Assembly: GCA_965226495.1 (NCBI GenBank)
Contig: OZ245365.1
Location: 6,016,001-6,080,000 of the forward strand
DNA: 64,000 bases
DNA from: Candidatus Marinacidobacterales bacterium
GTDB lineage: Bacteria; Acidobacteriota; Vicinamibacteria; Marinacidobacterales; DATDRI01
Direction of reading: 5' to 3'
Below, one piece after another: positions 1,383 through 7,148 of this stretch. The notes beneath the pieces are model-generated. The model was not told the origin of the DNA. It saw only the letters and a program-made list of their open reading frames with translations, and made no database searches. Position 1 is the first letter of the stretch. Each line of letters opens with the position of its first letter. Made by a program: the position numbers and the translations under genes.

Positions 1383-1502
1383 GCCTAACAGCAGCGATGA
1401 GTGGCGGCACGGCTAAAGCCTAGCCGAAGCGACCACACACCGACAAATTGTCTTATGCGTTCACGAAGCCTCTGTGCCGTCGGCTCGATCGCTTAGTTAG
1501 AC
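1383..1502 (-). repeat. attC site (120 bp)
   Basis: Plus strand GCCTAAC...GTTAGAC with inverted arms GCGATGAGTGGCGGCAC / GTGCCGTCGGCTCGATCGC. Confidence 0.9.
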
Positions 1503-1779: not shown

Positions 1780-2047
1780 CTCTCACCTTCGTAACGACTA
1801 CGTTCCGACCGTGTCGCCAGCCCCGCCGAGATCAATCTCACGATCTCCTCCGCCACGTGTAAACGACAACGAGGCATCGCCCGACGGCGTCCATGCCAAG
1901 AGTCACGTAACGTTTTTCTTCATCGACAGAGTCGTCCATGACTGTGACGGCAAGATCATCAAACAGAACCGTCGCGGCGTCGGCAAAGTTCACACCGTGC
2001 TTCTCGAGGTTGGACTCAGCTTTGCGGCTGTCCCACTCGAGCTCCAC
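1776..2047 (-). pseudogene. brnT: BrnT-family toxin, frameshifted
   Basis: MELEWDSRKAESNLEKHGVNFADA...EKRY...VVVYTWR stops early at 1838. The expected C-terminus EEIVRLISAGLATRSERSRYEGER* continues in another frame to 1776, overlapping the brnA ATG. Confidence 0.8.
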
Positions 2048-2053
2048 TATCTA

Positions 2054-2082
2054 AGTATATGCACACCCGTACATACAGGCAA
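2054..2082 (-). promoter_or_regulatory. Putative sigma70 promoter of the brnTA cassette
   Basis: Minus strand TTGCCT-N17-TATACT just upstream of the toxin start. Confidence 0.5.
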
Positions 2083-2116
2083 ATGAGGTTTCGGCGTGCG
2101 GAGCGGCACCAATTCG

Positions 2117-2239
2117 GTCTAACAGTAGCGATGAGCGGCCGCACGGCGGTGACGTTGCCGAAGCCCGCCGACGCTGCCGACCCAGCGCCTCATTGCTTCA
2201 CGAAGTCTCGGTGCCGTCCGCTCGATCGCTTAGTTAGCC
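2117..2239 (-). repeat. attC site (123 bp)
   Basis: GTCTAAC...GTTAGCC with arms closely related to the attC at 1383-1502. Confidence 0.9.
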
Positions 2240-2241
2240 GG

Positions 2242-2424
2242 CGCGAATTCATAAAGTAAGTGCAACACAGCTCCCGGATGAGGTGACCTGGAATGTGCCA
2301 CGATTCCTCAAACGACCAAGAATGGGGACTCGCTAATGACTTATTACCAGATCACCTCGGAAGAACGCTACACCATCGCGGCGCTGCGACGGGAGGGATT
2401 TTGCTCGGCCGAGATCGCGCGGCG
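2242..2424 (+). mobile_element. IS30-family left-end fragment (183 bp)
   Basis: Matches 4599-4781 apart from one mismatch I found (2314 G vs 4671 A). Includes the left IR and the first ~29 transposase codons. Confidence 0.9.
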
Positions 2425-2432
2425 AGCCCGAC

Positions 2433-2932
2433 GTCTAACTGGAGCCAAACCAGGGATAAAACCTAAACGATGCCTTCCTTCGAACTGTGCCTTTCGAGCA
2501 CCCAGTCGCATCGTGGTGACACGCCCCGGCAGCCCCTTCGCGTGATTGGCGTCTCGCTTGCTCCCCGACCAACAACTTGCGCTCGCGGGCTCGTCTTCTC
2601 CCGCTGCTCTGCCCCTCACCCGATCCCGTTTCTAACGAACCCGAGCTCGCTCAGGTCGTACCCTTTGATTGGGACGGTACGAGGGTACCCATGGGTTTCT
2701 AGTGCCGCAGGACGCTCCATGTTCCTGCACCGTCGTGCGCGAGGCTTCATCGCTTCACGCTCCGACGGCTGAGCCTCTATAGGTGTTTGGTACGGAGCTT
2801 CGGCTCACGTACCCGCTCCTCGAAACGAAGTCAGAGCAAATCCATCGAGCCTTCGACTTCCTTACAGGCACGCGCCCGTGCCTTCGGCAGAGATCTACCC
2901 CTTGACACGCGGGGGCCTGATAGGTGTTAGGC
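2433..2932. other. ORF-less structured segment bounded by attC core boxes; possible IS1111-type right-end ncRNA remnant
   Basis: Starts with GTCTAAC and ends with GTTAGGC. Several plus-strand hairpins, including GAGC-TTCG-GCTC and GGCACG-CGCC-CGTGCC. TTGACA at 2902-2907. No credible ORF. Confidence 0.45.
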
Positions 2933-2933
2933 T

Positions 2934-3428
2934 TCACTTGAATGACCTATATACGGTCTCAAAGAGGCGAGCGGTTAAGTTAATCGCATTTCGGTTCATT
3001 ACAATACGATCACCGTGGAATTCCATGTGACAAGGATAAACATTACCTTTATCGTCATGAATCTTGCCATCTTTGAGATCTTGGCAGTATTGTTGAATAT
3101 TGGCGATATCCGTGGCGTTCGTGGAGTCTAAGTCTTTTGGGATTGAGTCTTTGTGAACAAATGCGTTTCGTACAATCCAATGTAGAACTAAGTCTCTCTT
3201 TGCGGCGTTACTGTTCATGGACGACCACCATTTTCGGCCAAGCTTTCCTTCAGCGTACGCATAACAACCAACCAACATTGTTCCTGCAATAACATTCCAT
3301 GCTTCTGGATCATTACTCAGCCACTGACTTCGATTAGCTGTATCTTCTGACCATCGCTCGACCCCATGATCAAGGGCTTCTTCTAGCCCTCTAGCCATCC
3401 AGAAAATTGATTTCGGTATTTTTTGCAT
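2934..3428 (-). CDS. Hypothetical cassette protein, AT-rich
   Basis: ATG lies just inside a GTTAGGC box, and the stop is followed at once by GCCTAAC. Visibly lower GC than the flanks. No family recognised. Confidence 0.7.
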   Translation of the reverse strand: MQKIPKSIFWMARGLEEALDHGVERWSEDTANRSQWLSNDPEAWNVIAGTMLVGCYAYAEGKLGRKWWSSMNSNAAKRDLVLHWIVRNAFVHKDSIPKDLDSTNATDIANIQQYCQDLKDGKIHDDKGNVYPCHMEFHGDRIVMNRNAINLTARLFETVYRSFK

Positions 3429-3433
3429 AAGAA

Positions 3434-3451
3434 GCCTAACAGTTATTAGGC
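3434..3451 (-). other. Internal attI-like simple site
   Basis: GCCTAACAGTTATTAGGC shares the 14-mer CTAACAGTTATTAG with the array-terminal site at 7120-7133. No attC hairpin present. Confidence 0.6.
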
Positions 3452-3482
3452 AGCAATGACTTGCCGCGGCCACGATAAGCGT

Positions 3483-3893
3483 CTATGACGCGCGTCGAAG
3501 TCTTCGGATGCTCCATAGACCTACCAAAACGCCCAGCGCTTGCGATACGGCAACAAACAGAGCACTGGCTCGAAACAATCCCTGGGCATCCCCGGGCGGC
3601 AAATGCTCCACATGATCGGGCGAAACCGCAACGTAGTGATAATAGACGCCGAAGACAAGTGCCGCCGCCATCGACCCAATCAGGATGACCGCGCCTAGCC
3701 GAGCATGAGCGGTCCAAAGAAGCATCGCGGCTGCAAGGGGACTCAGCCCGATGACAAGCAGGATGAACGTCTCCTGCCACTTCGACATTTCGACACCTAG
3801 TTCCGAATGAGCCGCCCCGTGCGTTGCGTTGACTAGAACGTGCACGACGACGACCACGGTTCCAGCCCAAGCTACGGCGCGTCCCTTGCTCAT
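3483..3893 (-). CDS. Hypothetical 4-TM membrane protein with several His residues (cassette gene)
   Basis: Four hydrophobic segments; HGAAH, YYHY and PDHVEH motifs; starts 10 bp inside the attC R' box. Confidence 0.7.
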   Translation of the reverse strand: MSKGRAVAWAGTVVVVVHVLVNATHGAAHSELGVEMSKWQETFILLVIGLSPLAAAMLLWTAHARLGAVILIGSMAAALVFGVYYHYVAVSPDHVEHLPPGDAQGLFRASALFVAVSQALGVLVGLWSIRRLRRAS

Positions 3894-3902
3894 TCTTCGA
3901 CT

Positions 3903-3998
3903 GCCTAACAGGGTGTTCAGCGGCAAGCGGCGCGTCTTACAACACCCTTTTGCCTCTCCCGGTTCGCGCCGATTGTCCGCTGCAACACCGCGTTAGGC
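3903..3998 (-). repeat. attC site (96 bp)
   Basis: Minus strand GCCTAAC GCGGTGTTGCAGCGGAC...GCCGCTGAACACCCT GTTAGGC. The extra base in the L'' arm sets the array orientation to minus. Confidence 0.92.
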
Positions 3999-4043
3999 GC
4001 CACCTCGCGGGGGACAACCCGACGAAATACAAAAGCTTGGACA

Positions 4044-4445
4044 CTAGGCTGAGGGGACGACGGACCATATATCCTTCGCGAGTTTCCAAGAGCCGTCATC
4101 CTGTCGTCGAAACATGTGGATCCCGTGCCCGCTTATCTCCATCGGACCGCCACCTTCCTTCGGCGCCATCGTCAGCTCGTAGGTGTATCTCTGGAATGCC
4201 CAATCACCCGACACCACAATCTCCTCGTCTTTGAACGGCTTAAGGCTAGCGACCCCCTCATCCGTGAACCCGCGAAGGAATTGATGGGCGTCGGCACCTT
4301 TGACAGGCTTTTCACCTGGCGGAATCATTTCCAGGTCATCTGTCACCAACGCAAGCAGACCGTCAGCATCTCCTCCATTCACTGACTCCCTCCAACGCTG
4401 GAGGACAGTCTGGACATCATGAATATCGGTATCTTGATTGCCCAT
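4044..4445 (-). CDS. NTF2-like / DUF4440 (YybH-type) protein (cassette gene)
   Basis: W...GDADGLLALVTDD...V.G...VSGDWAF...RRQDDGSWKLAKDIWS; RBS AAGGAG upstream. Confidence 0.85.
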   Translation of the reverse strand: MGNQDTDIHDVQTVLQRWRESVNGGDADGLLALVTDDLEMIPPGEKPVKGADAHQFLRGFTDEGVASLKPFKDEEIVVSGDWAFQRYTYELTMAPKEGGGPMEISGHGIHMFRRQDDGSWKLAKDIWSVVPSA

Positions 4446-4480
4446 GACCGACTCCTTTCACGGAAATTTGAGTCCTGTGC

Positions 4481-4596
4481 GTCTAACGTTGAGTTGAGCG
4501 GCGGCACTGCAATGACGTCGCCGAAGGCGCCAGCGTTCACGATAACTCATACTTTACCGAAAGCTCTGTGCCGTCCGCTCCAACTCATTGTTAGCT
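4481..4596 (-). repeat. attC site (116 bp)
   Basis: GTCTAAC GTTGAGTTGAGCGGCGGCAC...GTGCCGTCCGCTCCAACTCATT GTTAGCT. Confidence 0.92.
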
Positions 4597-4598
4597 GG

Positions 4599-5676
4599 CG
4601 CGAATTCATAAAGTAAGTGCAACACAGCTCCCGGATGAGGTGACCTGGAATGTGCCACGATTCCTCAAACAACCAAGAATGGGGACTCGCTAATGACTTA
4701 TTACCAGATCACCTCGGAAGAACGCTACACCATCGCGGCGCTGCGACGGGAGGGATTTTGCTCGGCCGAGATCGCGCGGCGCCTGGGGCGCCACCGGAGC
4801 ACCATCTCGAGAGAGGTCAGGAGGAACAGCTCACCTAGTGATGGATGCTACCGGCCGAGCAAGGCCATCGAGAGAACGAACGGACGACGCTCGCGGTCTC
4901 GCCGGAACCAGTACTTCACAAAGGCCGACTTTGCCCTGGTGGAGAAGAAGCTTAAGGCCGACTGGAGCCCAGAGCAGATCTCCGGCCACCTGCGCCTTCA
5001 CGGCGAGCTCTCGATCAGCCACGAGACGATCTACACCCACGTTTGGCGGGACAAGGAGGCCGGAGGACATCTATACCGCCACCTTCGATGCTCGCCCAAA
5101 CTTAGACGCAAGCGCCACAACAGCTACGACAGCCGAGGCCGCCTGGCCGGGAAGCGTCACATCTCCGAGCGGCCGTCTTGTATCGACAAGCGCCGTGCCG
5201 TTGGCCACTGGGAGATTGACACCGTGGTAGGAAAAGACGCGCCGGACTGCGTCACCACGCTCGTGGAACGAAAGACGGGCTATGCGCTGATCGGCAAACT
5301 GTCCGACCGCAGCATGTTCGGCACTAGCCAGCGAACGAAGATGTTGCTCCGGCGGGTGCCGGATCAGGTCAAGACCATCACCGCGGACAATGGCACGGAG
5401 TTCCACGACTACGAATCCGTCGAGGAAGCGACCGGCGTCAAGTTCTACTTTGCAACTCCCTATCACTCATGGGAGAGAGGCAGCAACGAGAACTTCAATG
5501 GATTGCTACGACAATACCTGCCGAAGCGCACCAGCCAAGCAGCGCTCACGCAACGCCACTGCGATGGTATCGCAAAGAAGCTCAACACACGGCCCCGCAA
5601 GAGGCTCGGTTACCGCACACCGGAGGAACGTTTCCATGGGAACTAACGAATGGTGCGCTTCAAACTTGAAGTCACA
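4599..5676 (+). mobile_element. IS30-family insertion sequence, 1078 bp
   Basis: Imperfect IRs CGCGAATTCATAAAGTAAGTGCAAC and (reverse complement) TGTGACTTCAAGTTTGAAGCGCACC. TGG direct repeats at 4596-4598 and 5677-5679. Confidence 0.88.
4693..5646 (+). CDS. IS30-family DDE transposase
   Basis: N-terminal HTH (IARRLGRHRSTISRE), WSPEQI, GHWEIDTV, TADNGTEF, WERGSNENFNGLLRQYLPK, RPRKRLGY. Confidence 0.96.
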   Translation: MTYYQITSEERYTIAALRREGFCSAEIARRLGRHRSTISREVRRNSSPSDGCYRPSKAIERTNGRRSRSRRNQYFTKADFALVEKKLKADWSPEQISGHLRLHGELSISHETIYTHVWRDKEAGGHLYRHLRCSPKLRRKRHNSYDSRGRLAGKRHISERPSCIDKRRAVGHWEIDTVVGKDAPDCVTTLVERKTGYALIGKLSDRSMFGTSQRTKMLLRRVPDQVKTITADNGTEFHDYESVEEATGVKFYFATPYHSWERGSNENFNGLLRQYLPKRTSQAALTQRHCDGIAKKLNTRPRKRLGYRTPEERFHGN

Positions 5677-5830
5677 TGGCGCGTATCCTTACTGCTTCCA
5701 TGAACGTGGCCGCGCGAACCAGACGCGCTATGAGAACAAGTACTTGCGTCACGCCGGGGCTGGCGCCCATAACTCCGTCGGGCCGCAGCGCCCGCAACCA
5801 GAGTGAGCTGCTGGTCTTCTACCATAGGAA

Positions 5831-7039
5831 TCAATTCCCATGCAGCGCGCGATAGGGCACGTCCCCGGCAGATTGCGCGACTTCCAGGCCCAACTCGTGC
5901 GCTCGTGCAGCCGCAGTGAGCAGTGATTCTGTGGTGACTGCAAACGGCTCATTAGCTACAAAAGGAAGCATCATAGCTGTTTTCATCACGTCGCCTAGTT
6001 GCGCCTCGTTGGACAACGACAGCGATATCTGCCCAAGGTGGGCAGGCAAGCCAACTTTGGCAAAAAATCCCGCCACCTTTCGGGCCTCATCAAAGCTTTT
6101 CTCTAGAACGAGTTGGGTTAGCAACCCAATCGCCACCATCTCGCCGTGCATGTAGTTGCGATGCACCTCAGGAACCACTGTTAAACCCTGAGCGATCGAA
6201 TGAGCGACCGCCAGCCCGCCACTCTCAAACCCCATGCCGCTTAAGAGCGTATTCGCCTCGACAATGTTCTCGAGCGCGTCATTGACTTCAGAGCGCTTCA
6301 CAGCTTCCACCGCCGATAGGCCGTACTCAAACAAGGTGTCGGCGCACAGCTCGCCAATAGCGCTCGTGGCCAAGGTGGGGCGCGCTCCTAACACTGATCT
6401 TGCCCGAGGATTATCGAAACAAGTCCGCGCCTCATACCACGTTGCCATCGCGTCTCCTATCCCTGCCACCAGAAAGCGCACAGGAGCCTCTGCCACGATT
6501 CGGGTATCGATAGCGACAAGGGCAGGGCTACGGGGGGAGAACTCAACATCGCTAAAGACTCCCTCTGCCGTGTACATCACGGATAACGCAGAGCAAGGCG
6601 CATCAGTTGACGCTAAAGTCGGAACGCTCACCATCGGCATCGCCAATCGCTGGGCGACACATTTGCCCGCATCAAGGCATTTGCCTCCGCCTACCGCGAC
6701 TACGCTGTCCACAGGTGTTGCCATGGCCTGGAGAACCTCGACTACCCGATCAACTTCTTCGGTTGAGCATTCCCCATGAAAAGTCACGACCTCGGATTCG
6801 ATCTTGGCGCTGTTCAAGCTGTTTAGCAGCCTCGCGCCATCTCTTTGCTGGCCTGCTTTATCGATGAGAATCGCGACGCGTTCACTTGGAACGATCGATA
6901 GATACCGGCCGAGATGATCTAAAACACCATCCCCTTGGACATACCTCTGAGGAGCAATAAGAACACGGGGAACGCTGGCGGCTTCTCCTTCTTCGGTGGA
7001 AAACACCGCGTGCGGAATGTAGGGGATCGGGGCTGACAT
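5831..7039 (-). CDS. gldA: Glycerol dehydrogenase (Fe/Zn-type alcohol dehydrogenase family); first cassette
   Basis: PQRYVQG, GGGKCLD, PTLASTDAPCSALSV, GIGDAMATWYEA, GFESGGLAVAHSI, HGEMVA. Confidence 0.9.
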   Translation of the reverse strand: MSAPIPYIPHAVFSTEEGEAASVPRVLIAPQRYVQGDGVLDHLGRYLSIVPSERVAILIDKAGQQRDGARLLNSLNSAKIESEVVTFHGECSTEEVDRVVEVLQAMATPVDSVVAVGGGKCLDAGKCVAQRLAMPMVSVPTLASTDAPCSALSVMYTAEGVFSDVEFSPRSPALVAIDTRIVAEAPVRFLVAGIGDAMATWYEARTCFDNPRARSVLGARPTLATSAIGELCADTLFEYGLSAVEAVKRSEVNDALENIVEANTLLSGMGFESGGLAVAHSIAQGLTVVPEVHRNYMHGEMVAIGLLTQLVLEKSFDEARKVAGFFAKVGLPAHLGQISLSLSNEAQLGDVMKTAMMLPFVANEPFAVTTESLLTAAARAHELGLEVAQSAGDVPYRALHGN

Positions 7040-7117: not shown

Positions 7118-7148
7118 AGCTAACAGTTATTAGAAGGTTCCGTCTAAC
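7118..7148 (-). other. Putative attI site
   Basis: Minus strand GTTAGAC GGAACC TTCTAA TAACT GTTAGCT: an R box with a degenerate L box and an upstream direct-repeat box, at the start of the cassette array. Confidence 0.65.

Follow-up and report, generated by a model that had tools for sequence, protein, structure and literature searches.

The sequence analysed here, hereafter the window, is a 64,000-bp stretch of the genome of a Candidatus Marinacidobacterales bacterium (Acidobacteriota; genome positions 6016001-6080000), in which one complete and one truncated copy of an insertion sequence (IS) of the IS30 family lie beside two attC sites of an integron cassette cluster. Positions refer to the window unless the genome is named. 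The limits of the complete element (4599-5676, 1078 bp) were set by copy comparison: the segment 4561-5720 was employed as a blastn query against the whole 6.34-Mb genome, 16 matching segments were obtained, and query positions 39-1116, equivalent to 4599-5676, were common to the full copies. IS30-family elements are approximately 1-1.3 kb long, carry imperfect terminal inverted repeats and generate a short (2-3 bp) target duplication; a further trait of the family is copy-out-paste-in transposition, with joined ends (IR-IR) as the intermediate. In line with the size, ends and duplication typical of the family, the 1078-bp element has ends that agree at 15 of 27 positions, and a perfect 3-bp duplication flanks eight of the nine genomic copies that retain both ends. 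Its transposase matched the NCBI model of the IS30 family, NF033563, over model positions 1-267 of 267 (290.7 bits; cut-off, 80), with the Pfam domain HTH_38 at residues 4-45 (E 1.2e-15) and an rve domain at residues 168-259 that scored slightly below the Pfam cut-off (31.5 vs. 32.6 bits). Four copies in the genome, that of the window included, are 100% identical, and the element has therefore been active recently.

The transposase gene lies on the + strand and the cassette open reading frames (ORFs) on the - strand, each upstream of its own attC in that direction, so that the element is antisense to the cassettes. It is placed between the gene of an iron-containing alcohol dehydrogenase (Fe-ADH; 5831-7039) and the attC of that cassette, at the R'' end of the site. 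On the + strand, GTTAGCTGG followed by CGCGAATTCA, the first ten bases of the element, is read at 4590-4608, and the same ten bases open the truncated copy, where GTTAGCCGG followed by CGCGAATTCA is read at 2233-2251. Both starts lie 2 nt beyond an R'' box, and the two boxes belong to different attC, which scored 97.5 bits (complete copy) and 94.4 bits (truncated copy) with the covariance model described below. A reading made earlier from the letters of the window (the sequence-only reading) had claimed an IS30 element inserted at the same position beside two attC, with both copies directed against the cassettes and a TGG duplication at the full copy (4596-4598 and 5677-5679), and all of this was borne out.

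The left-end remnant comprises 183 nt that differ from 4599-4781 at exactly one base (2314 G vs. 4671 A), where a difference of at least one base had been noted before, and beyond base 183 the two copies are wholly dissimilar. For the DNA that follows (2425-2933), no second occurrence in the genome was detected by blastn, the self-match excepted, and a comparison of 2200-3000 with Rfam was negative at E-values up to 1, as was one of the whole window at gathering score; a group II intron in this stretch, considered because it resembled an intron domain V by eye, was ruled out, as no Rfam match was obtained. The suggestion that the remnant could be a duplicate of the 4481-4781 junction did not hold, because the abutting attC differ clearly (123 vs. 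116 nt, with different arms).

The attC sites were analyzed with covariance models, which replaced an early strict arm-score scan that had given only one attC in the window. Twelve candidate attC from this genome and a congener were aligned (alignment A1), and a model, R1, was built on A1. The sites in A1 have R boxes and three pairing blocks in common; the alignment comprises 24 pairs and leaves two columns of the 3' arm (+ strand) unpaired. Both IS-flanking sites display R'' and R' boxes (RYYYAAC and GTTRRRY), pairing arms, extra bases and a variable centre; in attC 2117-2239 the arms pair and the 3' arm has two extra bases on the + strand. Extra bases mark the R''/L'' side of an attC on its bottom strand, and by this rule the + strand is the bottom strand here. 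R1 was strongly strand-selective (site 1735644 scored 107.2 bits, vs. 34.3 on the other strand), and the IS-occupied attC scored as high as empty ones (94-98 vs. 95-107 bits).

When the whole genome was scanned with R1, 27 rows were obtained, corresponding to 22 distinct sites (E at most 1.4e-5), one opposite-strand duplicate and four weak matches, and a 23rd attC, an R1 seed dropped by the pre-filter, was recovered with filters off. These at least 23 attC, a lower bound given that 150 of 3358 first-look candidates were scored and one seed was missed, form at least six clusters near 0.83, 1.68, 1.73-1.74, 3.26, 5.75 and 6.01-6.02 Mb. The integron integrase is encoded at genome positions 1724731-1725672 (TIGR02249, 463.3 bits; cut-off, 265), and the cluster of the window has no integrase of its own. 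The features of the locus are collected in the table.

Table. Features of the IS30-family insertions and neighbouring attC sites (window positions, except in the last line).
Feature	Position	Strand	Evidence or remark
attC without adjoining IS, BrnT/BrnA cassette	1383..1502	-	R1 98.7 bits; A1 seed
attC; R'' end GTTAGCC (+ strand, 2233-2239) 2 nt from the remnant	2117..2239	-	R1 94.4 bits
Left-end IS remnant, element bases 1-183	2242..2424	+	Includes left inverted repeat and transposase codons 1-30
Unique non-coding DNA in place of the remaining IS, 509 bp	2425..2933		blastn self-match only; no Rfam match
attC without adjoining IS	3903..3998	-	R1 64.9 bits
attC of the Fe-ADH cassette; R'' box GTTAGCT (+ strand, 4590-4596)	4481..4596	-	R1 97.5 bits; in A1
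Target duplication, left copy TGG	4596..4598		Overlaps the R'' box by one base (its last)
IS30-family insertion sequence, complete	4599..5676	+	Copy comparison; 3 other genome copies 100% identical
Left inverted repeat	4599..4625	+	15/27 ungapped positions match the right end
Transposase gene, intact, 317 aa, single ORF	4693..5646	+	NF033563, Pfam
Right inverted repeat	5650..5676	+	End comparison
Target duplication, right copy TGG	5677..5679		Sequence reading
Cassette ORF, iron-containing alcohol dehydrogenase family	5831..7039	-	Pfam Fe-ADH, E 2.1e-25
attC-adjoining left junctions (genome positions)	6020599 (window), 6018242 (window), 835487, 1737892

The remnant could in principle be an assembly error, given that the element is multi-copy and that short-read contigs break at both attC-IS junctions. 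To set against this, six public sequencing runs from three studies contain 91-93% of the sampled words of window 1900-3100 and may include the source sample; contigs were compared from three such runs, one per study, and from a fourth run with a lower share. Contigs of the three studies have their first base 24-30 nt inside the remnant and extend past 2424/2425 to the unique DNA with no difference at the joint, and 28-30 nt of the full copy likewise continue through 5676/5677, both overlaps being just below the 31-letter rule for bridging. Further, the G at 2314 is a base that the full copy lacks. We consider an error of assembly highly improbable.

Across the genome, 11 left and 10 right junctions of the element were found. 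Four of the left junctions adjoin attC, each exactly 2 nt past the 7-bp box, and the four occupied sites are plainly different (116, 123, 112 and 82 nt at 6020599, 6018242, 835487 and 1737892, respectively). The junction at 1737892 is located in the main array, 12 kb from intI. Since the attC at 1737892 and one attC of the congener, G002, had been R1 seeds, a further model, R2, was built without both; it recovered the whole of both sites, with the match stopping 2 nt short of the element (25.7 and 26.7 bits, E ~3-5e-4). All 11 NF033563 matches in the genome are copies of this element, which leaves no other IS30 element there as a control. The copy at 835487-836613 lacks a target duplication, with CGG to its left and GCA to its right, and its attC has no recognisable R' box at the far end; together, the missing duplication and the missing box suggest a rearrangement at this solitary site.

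These copies also bear on the idea that element and neighbouring attC form one gene cassette moved by the integrase, in which case the adjacency would stem from cassette structure. Transposase genes are indeed often listed among cassette-encoded proteins (PMC11089894, PMC12444791; these and the papers below are cited for the parts of their text that were available). However, 3-bp duplications flank the element, the left one overlapping the R'' box, identical or near-identical elements adjoin clearly different attC of 82 to 123 nt, a cassette gene separates the element from the next attC upstream, and copies with duplications also occur far from any attC. A cassette origin of the arrangement is thus barely credible.

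Four copies are damaged at one internal spot, element bases ~176-198 (GGCGCC TGG GGCGCC), at window 2418-2430 and at genome positions 835645-835720, 5911540-5911560 and 5747560-5747600. Besides the truncation of the window remnant, one copy has a 49-bp scrambled insert, another a ~15-nt alignment deletion, and a 5'-truncated copy starts with ~15 scrambled bases at this same spot, which looks like a fragile or targeted site. The 5'-truncated copy (genome 5746696-5747590, - strand) is inverted with respect to the remnant, 271 kb away from it, and inside another attC cluster. CGG is found on the left of the remnant and on the right of the 5'-truncated copy, and the two may be halves of one insertion split by an inversion; this pairing is uncertain, as CGG also stands on the left of the 835487 copy.

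Some further observations concern the cassette arrays themselves. The cassette at 1510-2047 encodes BrnT and BrnA (Pfam), a toxin-antitoxin pair of a kind that cassettes commonly carry. The motif CTAACAGTTATTAG is present at two cassette boundaries (3428-3450 and 7120-7140) where the attC model finds no site, and may there mark degenerate or minimal recombination sites at the array edge. At genome positions 1682546-1682588, 43 bp identical to 5504-5546, a stretch inside the transposase gene, sit in the variable centre of attC 1682512-1682646, far from any copy of the element. Lastly, the integrase gene is co-directional with the cassettes and not divergent from them (genome 1724731-1745000; G002:C1:720000-738500, L040).

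Among 40 related genomes, the element was detected at 88-97% identity in three, namely G002 (same genus), G003 (same family) and G022 (same order), with 8, 7 and 1 left junctions, respectively. One of the eight junctions in G002 adjoins a 134-nt attC of the same architecture, 4 kb from the G002 intI, and the other junctions in the three genomes are off attC. The attC of these relatives differ in sequence, and the long-attC-arm pattern matched only once across the three genomes; the covariance model was therefore used there. Counting each flank once, the lineage comprises 25 distinct left junctions, five of them at attC, and three junctions share one repeated target. Chance is ruled out as the cause of the geometry seen in the window because three more attC junctions, in this genome and its congener, are alike. 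An empty site was also sought, and window 5677-6300 was found in none of the 40 relatives, save for one 40-nt match at chance level.

Two side observations were made in these relatives. At five loci of G002 and G003 (L011, L019, L028, L035 and L036) the flanks are alike on both sides (...CGTCCGCTACCATGTCCTGTTTGTCAT, element, CATCGATATCGCC...), and the element there seems to be nested in another, itself multiplied repeat. The G002 integron integrase (G002:C1:736836-737778) is found in two overlapping pieces (model positions 1-91 and 85-315), as would be expected from a frameshift.

To cover more distant relatives, a scan for similar transposases was performed with one genome per species. It yielded 80 loci, 20 of them from the three close relatives (Candidatus Marinacidobacterales, Acidobacteriota) and 60 picked by transposase similarity alone (53-75% identical), the latter from at least six phyla: Gemmatimonadota, Acidobacteriota, Myxococcota, Pseudomonadota, Verrucomicrobiota and Actinomycetota. 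The left tips are conserved (CGCGRATTCA, five variable bases and TAAGTGCAAC), and the positions of the junctions are therefore fixed; within the left inverted repeat, tip and TAAGTGCAAC core are kept throughout the clade. The left flank was readable at 53 of the 60 loci and missing at seven. GTT[AGT]NNN plus 2 nt stands directly at the tip in 43 of the 53 flanks, and four more flanks came close to this pattern, the departures being a tip duplication, a spacer of 3 nt, a single mismatch in the box and the loss of the tip.

An R1 match on the element's strand, ending 2-3 nt before the tip, was found in 35 of the 53 flanks, and in all 35 the orientation was the same. Of these, 32 came from the main scan, one (L106) precedes a duplicated tip, and two (L080 and L122) were obtained with filters off. 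The E-value was 0.01 or less for 31 of the 35; the four weakest had E-values of 0.033, 0.29, 0.64 and 3.4, one of them being cut by a contig end. When the match tables were read against the right-tip positions, no R1 match adjoined a right tip. Many loci have several co-oriented attC matches, which places the elements inside arrays. Among the 43 loci with both ends placed, 13 had a 3-bp duplication at offset 0, a lower bound in view of the crude placing of right tips. In one genome, identical elements adjoin similar attC with matched but different duplications (CCG/CCG at L096, CGG/CGG at L099), which points to separate transposition events. In a quick tree of 58 transposases, drawn without an outgroup, attC-adjoining rows were present in every major subclade. 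At the Gemmatimonadales locus L106 (1384-1409), the first 13 bases of the element (CGCGGATTCATAA) are found in tandem at the attC junction.

The closest plasmid-borne and closest named relatives are the Vibrio elements ISVa6 and ISVvu6 (54-55% amino-acid identity), which resemble the element of the window and have the same geometry with attC repeats, although they belong to another phylum and their attC measure 126-128 nt. In total, 18 distinct left flanks were read in a V. campbellii record and a V. vulnificus plasmid. An attC 5'-end consensus has been printed for V. anguillarum (PMC4572688), and its reverse complement fits 15 of the 18 flanks with 3-9 mismatches per 25 specified bases; the tip lies 5 nt past ...GTTA in 14 of the 15 and 4 nt past it in one. 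R1, which was built from another phylum, gave matches of 97-129 nt (most of 126-129 nt) ending 2 nt from the tip at nine loci, individually weak with E-values of 0.03 to 0.36. Other Vibrio replicons have the same left flank but no element next to it, and the similarity ends within a few bases of the insertion point. The available part of the paper that named ISVa6 mentions no attC association (PMC4572688).

The sequence-only reading had proposed attC as the target of this IS30 lineage, with the site left intact by the insertion. A covariance model applied to the flanks, BLAST searches of the genome and its relatives, and a target motif were among the checks it had named; these were run, and the attC geometry recurred. 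The same insertion point and orientation were found at five independent junctions in two genomes, at 35 (model) to 43 (box) of the 53 distant loci, and in 15 of the 18 Vibrio flanks. This supports attC targeting as a trait of the whole IS30 clade, which is wider than had been proposed.

To describe the target, a weight matrix was trained on the 20 distinct non-attC flanks alone. On the left side only, these flanks share GTCYG at -26 to -22, TGTTW at -10 to -6, and A or C at -3, with a spacing of GTCYG, 11 nt, TGTTW, 5 nt, element; no pattern was found in the right flank. The strongest columns were G at -22 (16 of 20 flanks) and T at -10 (18 of 20). The columns of this motif are invariant columns of the attC alignment, namely the GTC.G that surrounds the extra T of the arm and, in the R'' box, GTTA. 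All 23 genomic attC arms scored positive with the non-attC matrix (2.9-16.9 bits), and the occupied arms took ranks between 336 and 1685 in a total of 12.67 million positions. The sequence targeted is long and asymmetric, and it does not resemble the inverted repeats. Two other accounts of it were tried and rejected. A target mimicking the element's own ends, as in the inverted-repeat targeting of IS30, gave matrix scores of -26.7 to -1.6 bits (both ends, eight offsets), and attC adjacency as a mere by-product of a short motif, conceived with 3 of 11 junctions at the long attC type, was dropped after the attC model and the distant relatives.

We read the window as two independent insertions, one complete and one later truncated, by an IS30 clade that is site-specific for the R'' end of attC, and assign this reading a probability of roughly 0.8. 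Under it, the clade inserts in a single orientation at the 5' (R'') end of attC, with the left end landing 2 nt outside the 7-bp R'' box; the duplicated 3 bp are the last base of that box plus the next 2 nt, attC is left whole, and the transposase gene comes to be directed against the cassettes. This geometry and its recurrence, the duplications and the spread over the clade are observed directly. As for the mode of target recognition, we infer that the transposase, a DDE enzyme with an N-terminal helix-turn-helix, reads double-stranded sequence on the attC arm that has the extrahelical bases, the sequence read in this lineage being presumably G-26 T-25 C-24 Y-23 G-22 together with T-10 G-9 T-8 T-7 W-6, counted from the tip of the element. 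Double-stranded reading would explain landings at look-alike sites that are incapable of forming a hairpin. From its place between cassette gene and attC, the element would travel along if the integrase moved the cassette, a possibility that follows from the geometry.

Structure could take the place of sequence in this mechanism, with the transposase capturing a folded attC (a hairpin or cruciform of the bottom strand) or an integrase-bound one, and the motif arising as a by-product of attC conservation. It would suit this explanation that the adjoining attC arms share little sequence across phyla beyond the R'' box, and yet attC was matched at 35 of 53 loci, and that attC is hit more often in this genome than the sequence matrix predicts. 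The look-alike sites point the other way. No attC model match was obtained at the seven off-attC junctions of this genome (four of the seven covered with filters off), and their flanks have no complementary partner arm above chance (6.0-9.5 vs. a null 95th percentile of 10); in the whole lineage, the 20 non-attC sites carry intact 3-bp duplications and likewise have no partner arm above chance (-, 5.0 to 9.5; null 95th percentile, 10), so a hairpin is unnecessary for insertion. IS30-family enzymes are also known to act on double-stranded hot spots (PMC9333248). Recognition of structure is, in our judgement, unlikely, and double-stranded reading of the attC arm is preferred.

Several results weigh against a clade that is site-specific for attC. 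Seven of the 11 left junctions in this genome are off attC, as are 20 of the 25 distinct left junctions in the lineage, and among the 53 distant loci 10 are without the box and 18 without an attC model match; judged by the box at the tip (20 of 25 and 10 of 53), attC is not used exclusively. In the sequence-only reading, copies at sites unrelated to attC were what would speak against targeting. Copies outside attC do form the majority in this lineage, but their sites carry the motif of the attC arm and are in this sense not unrelated to attC. The tree and the flank survey had no outgroup of known flanks, so that they do not set the limits of the clade, and all of the evidence is drawn from present-day junctions. 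In the short-read contigs, the attC-IS junctions 2241/2242 and 4598/4599 are unbridged because repeats lie on both sides of them. Finally, attC arms make up 11 of the 1685 equally good sites, yet attC took 4 of 11 insertions (binomial P 5.8e-7); the matrix under-predicts the attC share, and some factor besides the matrix therefore acts. This factor may be DNA structure or a structural cue, local hopping, or the loss of harmful insertions. In this lineage, attC is a preferred and not a required target.

The loss of harmful insertions can be extended to a full explanation, in which a generic motif around TGTT is preferred and coincidence and survivorship do the rest: copies beside attC persist as harmless, and those in genes are lost. 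Most lineage copies are off attC and share TGTT, and an insertion between cassette gene and attC disrupts nothing. However, survivorship cannot account for an exact position and an orientation that are constant in all 35 model-supported junctions, which come from at least six phyla, nor for the second motif block 15 nt upstream, which fits the L'' region of the attC arm. We regard this explanation as improbable.

Two kinds of dedicated attC elements are known from the papers searched, IS1111-attC elements and group IIC-attC introns. Like the element of the window, IS1111-attC elements (IS110/IS1111; ISPa21, ISPst6) insert near the attC 5' end, antisense to the cassettes, and they form a subgroup of their family (PMC3001079). 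They differ in having a DEDD transposase with seekRNA-guided target choice (PMC11187229), in contrast with the DDE transposase, inverted repeats and 3-bp duplication described here, and the insertion point 2 nt outside the R'' box also sets the window element apart from them. Group IIC-attC introns (e.g., S.ma.I2), a monophyletic attC-associated subset, are likewise found near the attC 5' end and antisense to the cassettes (PMC3001079); these are retroelements that move through RNA, and no Rfam intron model matched here. IS30 of E. coli has a transposase of the same family and a similarly non-random choice of target, directed to long, nearly palindromic hot spots or, in a strict orientation, to its own inverted repeats; its duplication is of 2 bp (PMC9333248), whereas the window element duplicates 3 bp and has an asymmetric left-side target unlike its own ends. 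Recent integron papers, in the parts available, name only the IS1111 group as attC-targeting IS (PMC11089894, PMC12444791). A full-text literature search found no report of attC targeting by an IS30-family element, although an earlier mention is possible.

The IS30 clade would accordingly be a third kind. A broader proposal is that this DDE clade, ISVa6 and ISVvu6 included, is a third, independently evolved attC-specific lineage that reads the integrase's own marks of asymmetry (the R'' box and the arm with extrahelical bases), possibly on folded DNA, and that through cassette riding and recombination between copies it is a main cause of scattered integrase-less attC clusters. We put it forward as tentative, and in this full form as rather doubtful.

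A third kind of attC element with an ordinary transposase of the cut-and-paste (DDE) type, ranging from Acidobacteriota to Vibrio, would mark the boundary between cassette and attC as a safe landing place that has been discovered repeatedly. It would give a tractable protein-DNA system in which to study how a DDE transposase reads a long, asymmetric target, and, with copies in arrays being ready substrates for recombination, it would provide one reason why cassette arrays break up and are rearranged. This clade would have to be handled as an invader by annotation pipelines in which transposases are scored as cassette cargo, and the left end of the element would serve as a simple marker for cassette arrays in poorly known phyla.

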